From Eledone cirrhosa (taxonomy: Eukaryota), in assembly GCA_964016885.1 (NCBI GenBank), contig OZ024766.1, forward strand, positions 3,100,001 to 3,164,000: a stretch of 64,000 nucleotides of DNA, read 5' to 3'. The translations under genes were made by a program, and so were the position numbers. How positions within the stretch are numbered: position 1 is the first letter of the stretch; every line of letters begins with the position of its first letter. Below the pieces are notes generated by a model. It did not search any database. It was not told the origin of the DNA and worked only from the letters and a program-made list of their open reading frames with translations. Positions 42 through 63,761 of this stretch are shown piece after piece.

Positions 42-1841
42 TCAGTGATGAGGCTTTTCTCCTGTATGAAGACATATATGTCTAGTTAACTGATCAGCTT
101 GAGAGAATGACTTACCACAGATATCACAGTGATGAGCTTTCTCTCCTGTATGAATGAATTTATGTCTAGTTAAGTGAGCATTTTGAGAGAATGACTCACC
201 ACAGATATCACAGTGGTAAGGTTTTTCTCCTGTATGAATACGTATGTGTCCAGTTAAATTGCTCGCCGCAGCGAATGACTTACCACAGATATCACAGTGA
301 TGAGCTTTCTCTCCTGTATGAATGAATTTATGTCTAGTTAAGTGAGCATTTTGAGAGAACGATTCACCACAGATATCACAGTGATGAGGCTTCTCTCCTG
401 TATGAATATATTTATGTTTAGATAAACTACTTGACTGAGAGAATGACTTACCACAGATTTCACAGTGATAAGGTTTATTTCCTGTATGAAGATATTTGTG
501 TAGAGTTAAGTGACTTGACTGAGAGAATGACTTACCACAGATATCACAGTGATGAGGTTTCTCTCCTGTATGACTGTATTTATGTACAGTTAACTGACCT
601 GACTGAGAGAATGACTTTCCACAGATATCACAGTGATGAGGTTTCTCTCCTGTATGACTATATTTATGTACAGTTAACTGACTTGACCAGGAGAATGACT
701 TACCACAGATTTCACAGTGATAAGGTTTATTTCCTGTATGAATATATTTGTGTAGAGTTAAATTACTCGACTGAGAGAATGACTTACCACAGATATCACG
801 TTGATGAGCTTTCTCTCCGGTATGAATGAATTTATGTCTAGTTAAGTAATCATTTTGAGAGAATGATTTACCACAGATATCACAGTGATGAGGCTTCTCT
901 CCTGTATGTAGACGTATGTGTTGAGTTAAATGATGATTACGAGAGAATGATTTACCACAGATATCACAGTGATGAGGCTTCTCTCCTGTATGACTATATT
1001 TATGTACAGTTAATCGACTCGGCACAGAGAATGATTTACCACAGATTTCGCAGTGATAAGGTTTTTCTCCTGTATGAATACGTATGTGTTCAGTTAAATT
1101 GCTCCGCGCAGCGAATGGTTTACCACAGATATCACAGTGATGAGGCTTCTCTCCTGTATGACTAGATTTATGTAGAGTTAAACTACTCGAATGAGAGAAT
1201 GACTTACCACAGATTTCACAGTGATAAGGTTTTTCTCCTGTATGAACACGTATGTGTTCAGTTAAATTGCTCGCCGCAGCGAATGACTTACCACAGATAT
1301 AACAGTGATAAGGTTTTTCTCCTGTATGAATGTATTTATGTCGAGTTAAACTAATGGACTGAGAGAATGACTTACCACAGGTTTCACAGTGATAAGGTTT
1401 TTCTCCTGTATGAATACGTATGTGTCCAGTTAAATTGCTCCGCGCAGCGAATGATTTACCACAGATATCACAGTGATGAGGTTTCTCTCCTGTATGAATA
1501 CGTTTATGTGTAGTTAAATGCGCTGACAAAGAGAATGACTTTCCACAGATATCACAGTGATGAGGTTTCTCTCCTGTATGAATACTTATGTGTTCAGTTA
1601 AGTCACCCTTACACGAGAATGATTTACCACAGATATCACAGTGATGGGGTTTCTCTCCTGTATGGACAGATTTGTGTCTACTTAAACTATTTGACATAGA
1701 AAATGATTTACCACAGATGTCACACTGATGAGGCTTCTCTCCTGTATGAATACGTATGTGTTTAGTTAAGTAACCCGACACAGAGAATGATTTACCACAG
1801 ATATCACAGTCGTATGATGATTTTTTGTTCCTCTTTGACAT
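42..1841 (-). CDS. Poly-C2H2 zinc-finger protein, 21 fingers (ZNF-1); finger 13 has Cys1->Arg
   Basis: 599-aa ORF of C-x2-C-x12-H-x3-H repeats with TGEKP linkers; in-frame stop ~24 codons upstream of the ATG. Confidence 0.93.
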
Positions 1842-2227
1842 CTCTTCAGGAAAAAATATTTTTGCACAGCAGAAAATAAAGATGTTTTTTCTTGGTCTTC
1901 TTTTTATAGTTTATTCCTAATAAATATTTTCAAAGTTAAATTTCCATCAACTTTGATTTTTGTTGACACCTGAAAATGATGCAAATTCTTTTATAGATTT
2001 ACCCAAGTTTAATAAGAATACTATATCTTCTTGTACACTTTCCAGATAGTGAGGAGATAAATTATTTAATGAACCTCAGTTCAGAAGAAATACTTCACTG
2101 TAAGTCATCAAATGCTGATATAAAAAGACTTATATGAATACTGTGTAAAATGTTGTGTTAGTTTTTGAAAGATATTGATGTTGTAACCGAAGTTAAAATT
2201 TCTCTTCTGTCAATGTCATGTGATATT

Positions 2228-3001
2228 CTGAAATAGCAGAGAAAACAAAATAAGTTATGGAGAATGTTGAAATGTGATTCAATAATGGAAATTTTACATT
2301 TCTATATTGATAAACTGTATATATAAACTTTCAGCTGAATAATTAAACTTTTCAATGTGTGTGTATATATATTATAAGACCCGTCCCACCCTTGCAAGCA
2401 GGGAAAAGCGGACGTAAAATGATGATGATGATGATGATACAGTATATGCCAGCGTACAAGTCAATATTTATAGGCTAAAAATCTCACCTGCTCAGTTTCC
2501 TAGAAAATTAGTCATTTCCGACTGATTTTGAGGTTAGGTTTGTTGGAAACACGAAAAAAAACTGGGAAAATTAACAATTTCCCACCGGACGACCGACAGG
2601 TGCTTTTACTGTAAATTTACCTTAAATTAAAACAGATTTAGGCTAACATGTAGACAGATTTAATTAACTTTAAACAACAAAGTACAGCTGAATATAAACT
2701 ACATATTATAATACAAGGTAGTGAACATGATTAAATAGACGGAGGTAATTTAAATAATAAAGACACTCATAATAACAATCTATTTTATATCACATGTAAC
2801 AGTAGTATCTAGCTATTGTAAAATAAGACAACATTTCAGTCTAGAAGTATTTTCCTGTATATAAAAGTGACGAGGAAGAAATATGTCCAAATTTGTTAAA
2901 TATTTTCACTTGTATATAATTACTGTATCGTTGAAAGGTTCACATAATTCTATTATTTACACACATTATTATAGACTTCAAGTAAATCTTTCTCAACTTA
3001 C
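2228..3001 (-). other. Predicted 5'-UTR intron of ZNF-1 (equivalent in every complete unit, e.g. 8099..8837)
   Basis: Minus-strand donor GAGG|GTAAGT at 3001 and acceptor TTTTGTTTTCTCTGCTATTTCAG| ending at 2228, both conserved in all units; no transcript evidence. Confidence 0.65.
2377..2438 (+). mobile_element. ~62-bp extreme 3' end of an RTE LINE (or related SINE) with (GAT)n tail, intronic, unit 1
   Basis: Reads KTRPTLASREKRT* then (GAT)n; resembles the 3' terminus of the young LINE; absent in units 2,4,6,8,9. Confidence 0.7.
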
Positions 3002-61055: not shown

Positions 61056-61541
61056 TTATATATGTAACATGAAGTAACATTGCCAAGTTAGAATGTTTGT
61101 TTGTTTTTCTCTATTTAAGTCACTGGTAGGGCTTTCATCAGTGTCTCTTCTCTTATGTACATTTAAATTACTGCGACAGACAAAAGATTTCCCACAGATT
61201 ACACATTTGAAGGGTTTGGCTTCTCTCCTGTATGTATATATTTGTGTTTAGCTAAGCTACTTCACTGCGGGAATAACTTACCACAGTTATCACAGTGATG
61301 AGGTTTCTCTCCTGTATGAATATGTATGTGTTCAGGTAAGTGACATGACAGTGAGAATGATTTACCTCAGACTTCAGTGATAAGGTTTTTTTCCTGCATG
61401 ACTATATTTGGGTTGAGTTAAGTGATGATTTAGAGAGATTTATTTACCACAGATATCACAGTGATAAGGCTTCTCTCCTGTATGAATGGATTTATGTTGA
61501 GTTAAACTACTTGACTGAGAGAATGACTTACCACAGATATA
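61056..61541 (-). pseudogene. Decayed fingers downstream of ZNF-10
   Basis: Paralog of 5262..5744. Confidence 0.8.
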
Positions 61542-63761
61542 TCAGTGATGAGGCTTTTCTCCTGTATGAAGACGTATATGTCTAGTTAACTGATCAGCTC
61601 GAGAGAATGATTTACCACAGATATCACAGGAATGAGGCTTCTCGCCTGTATGAATACGCTTATGTGTAGTTAAATGCGATGACAAAGAGAATGACTTTCC
61701 ACAGATATCACAAGGATGAGGCTTCTCTCCAGTATGAGTATATTTATGTACAGTTAATTGACCTGACTGAGAGAATGACTTACCACAGATATCACAGTGA
61801 TGAGGCTTCTCTCCTGTATGACTATATTTATGTAGAGTTAAACTACTCGAGTGAGAGAATGACTTACTACAGATATCACAGTGATGAGGTTTTTCTCCTG
61901 TATGAATACGTATGTGTTCAGTTAAATTGCTCGGCGCAGCGAATGACTTACCACAGATATCACAGTGATAAGGCTTCTCTCCTGTATGAATGTATTTATG
62001 TCGAGTTAAACTACTCGAGTGAGAGAATGACTTACCACAGATTTCACAGTGATGAGGCTTCTCTCCTGTATGACTATATTTATGTACAGTTAACCGACCT
62101 GACTGAGAGAATGACTTACCACAGATTTCACAGTGATAAGGTTTTTCTCCTGTATGAATACGTATGTGTTCAGTTAAATTGCTCGGCACAGCGAATGATT
62201 TACCACAGATATCACAGTGATAAGGTTTTTCTCCTGTATGAATACGTATGTGTTCAGTTAAATTGCTTCGCGCAGCGAATGATTTACCACAGATATCACA
62301 GTGATGAGGTTTCTCTCCTGTATGACTAGATTTATGTAGAGTTAAACTACTCGAATGAGAGAATGACTTACCACAGATTTCACAGTGATAAGGTTTTTCT
62401 CCTGTATGAATACGTATGTGTTCAGTTAAATTGCTCGCCGCAGCGAGTAACTTACCACAGATATCACAGTGATAAGGTTTTTCTCCTGTATGAATACGTA
62501 TGTGTTCAGTTAAATTGCTCCGCGCAGCGAATGATTTACCACAGATATCACAGTGATGAGGTTTCTCTCCTGTATGACTAGATTTATGTAGAGTTAAACT
62601 ACTCGACTGAGAGAATGACTTACCACAGATATCACAGTGATAAGGTTTATTTCCTGTATGAAGATATTTGTGTCGAGTTAAACTACTCGACTGAGAGAAT
62701 GACTTACCACAGATATTACATTCATGAGGTTTCTCTCCTGTATGAATGAATTTATGTCTAGTTAAGTGATCATTTCGAGAGAATGATTCACCACAGATAT
62801 CACATTGATGAGCTTTCCCTCCTGTATGAATGAATTTATGTCTAGTTAAGTGAGCATTTTGAGAGAATGATTCAGCACAGATATCACAGTGATGAGCTTT
62901 CCCTCCTGTATGAAGGAATTTATGTCTAGTTAAGTGAGCATTTTGAGAGAATGATTCACCACAGATATCACATTGATGAGCTTTCCCTCCTGTATGAATG
63001 AATTTATGTCTAGTTAAGTGAGCATTTTGAGAGAATGATTTACCACAGATATCACAGTGATGAGGCTTCTCTCCTGTATGACTATATTTATGTACAGTTA
63101 ATTGACCTGACTGAGAGAATGACTTTCCACAGATATCACAGAGATGAGGCTTCTCTCCTGTATGAATATATTTATGTACAGTTAACTGACTTGACCGGGA
63201 GAATGACTTCCCACAGATTTCACAGTGATAAGGTTTCTTTCCTGTATGAATATATTTATGTTTAGATAAACTACTTGGTTGAGAAAATGATTCACCACAG
63301 ATATCACAGTGATGAGGCTTCTCTCCTGTATGAATATATTTATGTACAGTTAACTGACCTGACTGGGAGAATGACTTCCCACAGATTTCACAGTGATGAC
63401 GCTTCTCTCCGGTATGAATACGTTTATGTGTAGTTAAATGCGCTGACAAAGAGAATGACTTTCCACAGATATCACAGTGATGAGATTTCTCTCCTGTATG
63501 AATACGTATGTGTTTAGTTAAGTCACCCTTACACGAGAATGATTTACCACAGATATCACAGTGACGGGGTTTCTCTCCTGTATGGACAGATTTGTGTCTA
63601 CTTAAACTACTTGACATAGAAAATGATTTACCACAGATGTCACACTGATGAGGCTTCTCTCCTGTATGAATACGTATGTGTTTAGTTAAGTAACCCGACA
63701 CAGAGAATGATTTACCACAGATATCACAGTCGTATGATGATTTTTTGTTCCTCTTTGACAT
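61542..63761 (-). CDS. Poly-C2H2 zinc-finger protein, 26 fingers (ZNF-10)
   Basis: 739-aa finger ORF. Confidence 0.93.

Follow-up and report, generated by a model that had tools for sequence, protein, structure and literature searches.

The C2H2 zinc finger is a textbook fold, and cephalopod C2H2 repertoires, which are usually analysed as whole genes placed on a tree, are among the largest. Expansions of these genes have been described in coleoids; the available sections of these papers contain no finger-level analysis (PMC12513265, PMC9068888) and invoke gene conversion for the protocadherins, not for the C2H2 genes (PMC9068888). In PRDM9, concerted evolution takes place within one gene (PMC2779102, PMC3890296, bioRxiv 10.64898/2026.09.07.749791). 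Gain and loss of fingers and, for most genes of two chicken sets, conversion among paralogues were reported (PMC2604467), a "shift" by insertion of finger segments was described (PMC5363842), finger combinations made by recombination were proposed to act against retroviruses (PMC3921586) and strain-specific fingerprint arrays were shown (bioRxiv 10.1101/2025.02.26.640358). In silico predictions of transposon binding included fingers from octopus (PMC6444547, PMC10547256). We have analysed a window of 64,000 nucleotides from Eledone cirrhosa (C27:3100001-3164000 in a 3.0-Gb assembly; positions without the prefix C27 are counted within the window) that contains ten C2H2 open reading frames (ORFs), named G1 to G10. 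They most likely represent one subfamily of the coleoid C2H2 expansions. This tandem subfamily is probably young, its arrays being mosaics of about 22 old finger types that were likely reshuffled by out-of-register homologous recombination between the copies.

The finger genes and their vocabulary

The ten ORFs are all on the minus strand and contain 219 units of 84 bp, 6 to 31 per gene and every one in frame, which confirms the counts of a first-pass annotation made from the sequence alone. Each ORF is composed of a 9-residue leader, of fingers following it directly and of a shared stop two codons past the last finger, and the frame is open in all ten. Both cysteines and both histidines are kept in 217 of the 219 units (C-x2-C-x12-H-x3-H, with TGEKP-type linkers), the first cysteine being missing from one G1 finger. 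G5 matches the Pfam entries PF00096 and PF13465. The best 120 matches of a protein search with the fingers were all generic, with 31-58% identity and a majority from vertebrates, and included no cephalopod protein. An eleventh member of the subfamily, frameshifted, is located just beyond the window (C27:3167699-3169478).

42..1841, minus strand: G1, 599 aa, 9-residue leader and 21 fingers
5745..7712, minus strand: G2, 655 aa, 23 fingers
7518..7685, minus strand: constant first two fingers, types J and K (G2 copy)
13975..15774, minus strand: G3, twin of G1, from which it differs at 3 of 1764 nt; 599 aa, 21 fingers
19679..21730, minus strand: G4, twin of G2, with a 5' flank that is the same at all 1144 sites; 683 aa, 24 fingers
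27992..28531, minus strand: G5, 179 aa, 6 fingers; constant ends present, middle mostly gone
34866..36581, minus strand: G6, 571 aa, 20 fingers; 5' flank nearest G8/G9, unique 3' flank nearest G3 (1/614)
41361..42908, minus strand: G7, 515 aa, 18 fingers; without the first two constant fingers
46876..49347, minus strand: G8, 823 aa, 29 fingers; mosaic
54127..56766, minus strand: G9, 879 aa, 31 fingers; exact duplication of 242 nt inside
61542..63761, minus strand: G10, 739 aa, 26 fingers
1..27660: G1-G2 and G3-G4 as the two copies of a recently duplicated segment of about 13.9 kb, with 99.2-99.5% identity between their spacers

The spacers measure 3.7-6.0 kb and their identity reaches 92-99.5% in the best alignments, the differences being mainly transposon remnants. 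The near-identity first noticed for spacers and introns holds for the former; the introns are predicted from splice consensus only.

Taking positions -1 to +6 as the helix, 71 distinct helices were found and 45 of them recur, in line with the few dozen recurring helices first reported. At a cut-off of 7 nt, the 148 distinct DNA units present among the 219 were grouped into 22 DNA types, so that each gene can be written as a string (for G1, JKHBDODMDPQCEFAEGCDCI). The nearest finger belongs to another gene for 190 of the 219 units, to the same gene for 15 and is tied for 14 (180, 23 and 16, respectively, with the twin pairs excluded): as anticipated, the fingers group by type across genes and not by gene. 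On average, two fingers differ by 16.6 nt when they belong to one gene and by 16.4 nt when they belong to different genes. Within arrays the finger identity averages 0.78-0.82, and 6-14% of the pairs are more than 90% identical. Types J-K-H open nine of the ten genes and type I closes all of them, the middle being variable. The strings contain 68 distinct adjacent type pairs, whereas shuffling the fingers 1000 times within their genes gave 138 on average and never fewer than 124; the order is thus far from random and kept in blocks.

Exchange between genes

The grouping by type would also be expected from plain duplication of one ancestral array, and for this reason the histories of flanks and arrays were tested instead. 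Under such a birth-and-death process, whole genes would be copied from one long ancestor, each then losing or duplicating fingers of its own, with zero exchange between genes. The conserved block order and four groups of identical fingers confined to single genes agree with this explanation, and the common types require no exchange. The two flanks of the genes disagree with it. For all ten genes, 1144 columns of 5' flank and 614 columns of unique 3' flank were compared. Across the array (5' versus unique 3' flank), 341 of 504 informative site pairs (68%) are incompatible in the four-gamete test. The corresponding figures are 72 of 486 (15%) inside the flanks and 173 of 483 for pairs separated by a spacer. 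The 5' and 3' flank distances are uncorrelated (rho 0.06), and approximately unbiased (AU) tests, using a wider 3' flank that takes in the degenerate fingers, rejected the tree of each flank on the other one (p ~1e-10 and 1e-12). G3 and G6 differ at 15 of 1144 sites upstream and at only 1 of 614 downstream; between G7 and G8, 22 differences are found upstream and 6 downstream.

The arrays themselves point in the same direction. G8 is a mosaic of three donors, which match different flank groups: its fingers 1-7 match G9 (1 difference in 518 nt), its fingers 13-21 match G1/G3 (14-15 differences in 683 nt) and its fingers 23-29 match G7 (5 differences in 608 nt). G2 and G4 have identical 5' flanks, yet their middle finger content differs.

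20864..21031, minus strand: G4 fingers 9-10, which its twin G2 does not have; identity over 146 nt with the region of finger 16 in G8 (47977-48060)

Twenty groups of identical units span non-twin genes at differing array positions. Types with at least four members contain 185 variant alleles, of which 104 are also present in another type within an identical 9-nt context; the proportion is 24% when tolerated point changes are simulated. The linkage between sites drops inside one unit length (r2 from 0.11 to 0.03). The clearest single case concerns the replacement of one recognition helix.

42210..42293, minus strand: G7 finger 8, inferred gene-conversion tract with the recognition helix replaced

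Nucleotides 1-35 of this finger are exactly those of a resident type-B finger (G9 finger 19), and over nucleotides 25-84 there is no difference from finger 5 of the gene C27:2755166-2756956, which is located about 390 kb off and has a 5' flank diverged by 14%. The finger is at least 12 nt away from every other finger of the window, and its neighbours match a resident three-finger block of G6/G9. A type K finger is identical (0/84) to a finger of the gene at C27:4382024, 1.25 Mb away and with a flank diverged by 8-9%, and represents a weaker second case across subfamilies. With incompatible flank trees, a G7 helix that has its exact source elsewhere and none in the subfamily, and identical units scattered over non-twin genes, an origin by birth-and-death without exchange appears very unlikely, unless the flank results come from chimeras of the assembly. 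The exchange between genes proposed by the first-pass annotation is upheld by the flank incompatibility, the G8 mosaic and the G7 import. Its combinatorial shuffling, however, has to be amended: instead of a free reordering of single fingers, multi-finger blocks are moved and conversion acts below the finger level.

Some observations weigh against a reading in which the arrays are reshuffled by exchange. The G4 finger common to G8 could be ancestral and lost from G2; a single clean import of a helix across subfamilies is seen in 219 fingers; the flank incongruence is high across spacers too (36-51%), recombination not being restricted to the arrays; and the evidence comes from one assembly. 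As the spacers are mosaic as well, the whole repeat unit recombines, and the arrays do so more often; these mosaic spacers rule out that crossovers occur only in arrays.

Mis-joined reads, or haplotypes laid in tandem by the assembly, would also generate apparent chimeras and differing arrays. The G1-G2/G3-G4 copy, with its identity of 99.2-99.5%, is within the range of two alleles; it could have arisen by a recent tandem duplication, or the assembly could have placed two haplotypes one after the other. None of the arrays is spanned by a public contig: contigs from four public runs, compared with window positions 26900-29900, gave flank pieces of up to about 350 nt with 2-5 differences, none of them spanning. 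In the public sample S1, the majority allele of the copies was found at the compared sites and some flank sites (26929-27280 and other G5 flanks) were under a single contig, as against ten varied copies in the window, a pattern that could reflect fewer or more uniform copies in that sample. On the other hand, the main evidence for exchange (G6-G9 and the G7 import) is independent of the 13.9-kb twin, and the other copies are about 1-2.4% apart in their flanks, with many diagnostic sites. Ten intact frames and variants that avoid the core residues are unlike assembly error, a mis-join of long reads would not plausibly place a helix tract of only a few dozen bases within a resident block, other subfamilies repeat the pattern and no N is present in the stretches checked. 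An artefact of this kind is thus most improbable, and recombination between the copies is retained.

The width of the exchange pool was estimated from the window and from 40 fetched 10-kb stretches around search hits, a sample and not a census. It contains 62 finger ORFs with 848 fingers, that is, many clustered paralogues on one chromosome. The sharing of fingers, a partner being a finger within 2 nt, was analysed in 51 genes with a leader (750 fingers; 1248 pairs with alignable flanks). On average, 39% of fingers share a partner when the flanks are diverged by less than 2% (67 pairs). This value falls to 4.3% at 2-5% of flank divergence (107 pairs), to 1.3% at 5-8% (227 pairs), to 0.4% at 8-12% (174 pairs) and to about zero above 12% (673 pairs). 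Moreover, adjoining subfamilies have vocabularies of their own. The pool is a subfamily of about 11 genes with rare leaks, as homology-dependent recombination predicts. The whole cluster had been considered as one recombining pool; this is correct for the subfamily of the window (ten genes and the frameshifted eleventh) and incorrect for the megabase cluster, a single pool for the whole chromosome cluster being ruled out by the decay of sharing with flank divergence.

Several other gene groups were observed on the same chromosome. The neighbouring subfamily at C27:3189307-3213999 has its own vocabulary, a within-array identity of 0.85-0.87 and several frameshifted members; the gene at C27:2755166, the best donor for G7 finger 8, is related to it. 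Two near-twin genes at C27:2708238 (plus strand) and C27:3077784 (minus strand), with 15 and 17 fingers, are found in opposite orientation about 370 kb apart, which suggests an inverted duplication or long-range conversion. Four genes spaced by about 9.8 kb (C27:2762367, 2772279, 2781996 and 2791799) contain the same nine helices in the same order and would represent a very recent amplification, still unshuffled, which makes them useful as a control. Finally, a distant subfamily at C27:8148350-8204894 has distinct helices, and the number (16-22) and order of its fingers differ.

Selection on the fingers

Only 2 of 46 untemplated variants hit the core residues (C, C, F, L, H, H) or create a stop, where 34% would be expected (p 1e-6). 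The genes have been under purifying selection since the types diversified, and the zinc-binding residues are kept. The other 44 untemplated variants include 15 changes of contact residues against 7.9 expected (p 0.007), some of which may be old subtype differences. Codon models with a class-specific (local) synonymous rate (dS) were fitted to the representatives of the window types and to 93 outside representatives. The ratio of nonsynonymous to synonymous rates (dN/dS, omega) at contact positions is 1.8-2.5 in the window types (twice the log-likelihood difference, 2dL, of 3.2-5.7) and 1.9 in the outside representatives (2dL 9.0-9.6), whereas the backbone omega is 0.13-0.26 (0.13-0.15 in the window types). 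The contact signal is located at +6 (2dL 10-12 alone) and at -1. Neutral simulations were run in two settings, with and without conversion (40 each), and none of the 80 reached the +6 statistic. A fit with shared dS, which gave a contact omega of 3.3, was set aside as probably inflated by backbone homogenisation. New residues are probably favoured at +6 and -1, on moderate evidence; the predicted excess of change at contact residues is thus recovered in the per-codon analysis, with an omega of about 2 and mainly at these two positions.

This adaptive part of the interpretation has its own difficulties. Omega is below 1 at +1 and +3. The pooled contact signal of the window is borderline, an omega of 2.16 being reached by 3 of 40 neutral simulations per setting. 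The third positions of the +4 and +5 codons are also nearly invariant, and the zero dS at +6 may therefore partly reflect codon bias. In addition, tree-based dN/dS is questionable on converted repeats (PMC3890296).

The distribution of diversity likewise corresponds only in part to the initial description. The backbone, considered as almost invariant, is so for the protein but not for the DNA, where silent sites vary: the third positions of the backbone G, K, H and K codons have a heterozygosity of 0.39-0.51. Differences were also thought to be concentrated at the helix. Contact changes are indeed in excess, but the contact positions hold only 35-43% of the amino-acid diversity, and variability is almost as high at the non-contact residues that separate the two histidines (omega 1.1-2.1) as at the contact residues. 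Both values speak for an exchange that is real but neutral, in a satellite-like family, redundant or barely expressed, whose new specificities are tolerated and not favoured. The frameshifts in several neighbours, including the eleventh subfamily member, go the same way, while the excess of contact-residue changes and the strong purifying selection that recent variants reveal at the core residues do not. Neutral churn appears somewhat unlikely; it relies on the same mechanism as the preferred explanation and differs from it on adaptive value alone.

Flanking elements, proposed mechanism and comparison with known systems

Outside the intact arrays, four kinds of elements were detected.

1842..2560, minus strand: module upstream of G1, for which sequence consensus predicts a splice donor at 2487 and an acceptor at either 2228 or 1970
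5330..5744, minus strand: degenerate fingers past the shared stop (G2 copy); stop position the same and later breaks similar in G2-G10
25645..26859, minus strand: remnant of a long interspersed nuclear element (LINE) reverse transcriptase with a PHD-like stretch; further copies near 11634-12844 (or 11138-12844) and 32940-33734
38367..38645, plus strand: remnant of an ISXO2-like transposase (Pfam PF12762, E 7e-6, slightly below the curated cut-off)

A module comparable to that of G1 precedes many C27 paralogues, and no coding domain was found upstream. The module (window 2380-2800) recurs at many places, with matches on C27, C18 and C12; on C18 and at C27 ~15.95-16.39 Mb, part of it makes up short tandem repeats of about 110-115 bp. 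Beyond the shared premature stop, each of the nine genes that were examined (G2-G10) has 3-5 decayed fingers, of which the last is divergent and terminal; truncation of the subfamily's ancestor would have preceded the amplification. The LINE remnant was copied with the unit into three spacers, and its best named match by identity is from Octopus bimaculoides (66% over 71%), a hint, though no more than that, of an octopod host. The ISXO2-like remnant is included in an extra segment common to the spacers upstream of G6, G8 and G9. Both are passengers of the amplification of the tandem unit, with three copies each.

The proposed mechanism of recombination between the copies is the following. The nearly identical linker and beta-hairpin, present every 84 bp, would allow paralogues to mispair in any register, presumably in the germline. 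An unequal crossover would fuse the 5' portion of a gene to the 3' portion of a different copy, changing the number and order of fingers blockwise, and the products would stay in frame because the unit is 84 bp long. Short gene conversion would replace half-fingers or one recognition helix, the donor usually belonging to the subfamily and only seldom to a more distant one. The constant ends could be explained if exchange near the unique flanks remains in register. Selection retains the zinc-binding residues and probably favours new +6 and -1 residues. The products would be predicted transcription factors whose DNA targets change rapidly, and lineage-specific repeats may, by analogy, be the likeliest targets, a suggestion that we advance tentatively. 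Since scanning one upstream spacer revealed no effector domain, repression by these proteins, if any, would have to rely on a partner or on simple occlusion. More speculatively, the chromosome could act as a distributed germline library in which subfamilies, broken copies and post-stop fingers donate helices or blocks to one another through conversion; individuals would then differ, in a PRDM9-like manner, across dozens to hundreds of effector-less genes selected to track young repeats. We regard this extension as rather doubtful.

If the arrays are mosaic, gene trees and orthology calls mislead for these families, and specificity changes faster than point mutation would allow, since only 4% of fingers keep a near-identical partner at 2-5% of flank divergence. 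The named donor-recipient pairs (G7 finger 8 and G8) and the twins G2/G4 allow direct tests of rate, tract length and effect on binding, in an invertebrate system where no KRAB was found.

PRDM9 is one of the closest known systems. The window genes have in common with it the 84-bp units, conversion, changes in copy number, a variable centre with constant ends and selection on contact residues. One could thus suppose that they are PRDM9 paralogues or PRDM9-like directors of recombination, as their coding minisatellite resembles that of mouse Prdm9 (PMC3890296) and their contact share of 0.35-0.43 falls at the bottom of the PRDM9 range of 0.29-1.0 (bioRxiv 10.64898/2026.09.07.749791). However, the ORFs consist of a 9-residue leader and fingers, and a Pfam scan of 16 minus-strand ORFs from the spacer that precedes G6 detected no SET, KRAB or SSXRD, although short or split exons could escape it. 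The arrays are not homogenised either: 6-14% of within-array pairs exceed 90% identity, against all pairs in mouse Prdm9 (PMC2779102). PRDM9 homogenises the fingers of one gene, whereas in the window some 22 old types, which differ by about 20%, have been maintained while moving from one paralogue to another, and the omega of contact sites is about 2 instead of about 10. Membership of PRDM9 is exceedingly unlikely, and the analogy first drawn is a partial one.

Hemipteran ZF271-like/APEZ and cyprinid FiNZ-ZNF genes are likewise non-KRAB tandem finger genes with fast turnover (PMC6444547, PMC10547256). The FiNZ genes carry an exon for a 28-aa N-terminal domain, and none is seen in the window genes; scanning the ORFs and one spacer revealed no exon for an N-terminal effector domain of the KRAB-ZNF or FiNZ-ZNF kind. 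The described coleoid expansions also consist of lineage-specific clustered poly-finger genes, which in the accessible parts of the papers are treated as whole genes on a tree and through their expression, and not as mosaics of fingers as here (PMC12513265, PMC9068888). This type of cluster is therefore already known in coleoids. No demonstration of exchange of fingers or helices between cephalopod paralogues was found in the open-licence literature, although subscription papers and supplements could hold one. Vertebrate KRAB-ZNF clusters resemble the window in their tandem paralogues varying in finger number, their conversion tracts and their transposons amplified with the unit. They differ in that no KRAB or other effector was found here, that exchange is apparently pervasive rather than occasional, and that one can see a helix imported below the finger level from a named donor. 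Vertebrates offer precedents for the process; it is shown unusually plainly here, in effector-less invertebrate genes and down to the transfer of a single helix.

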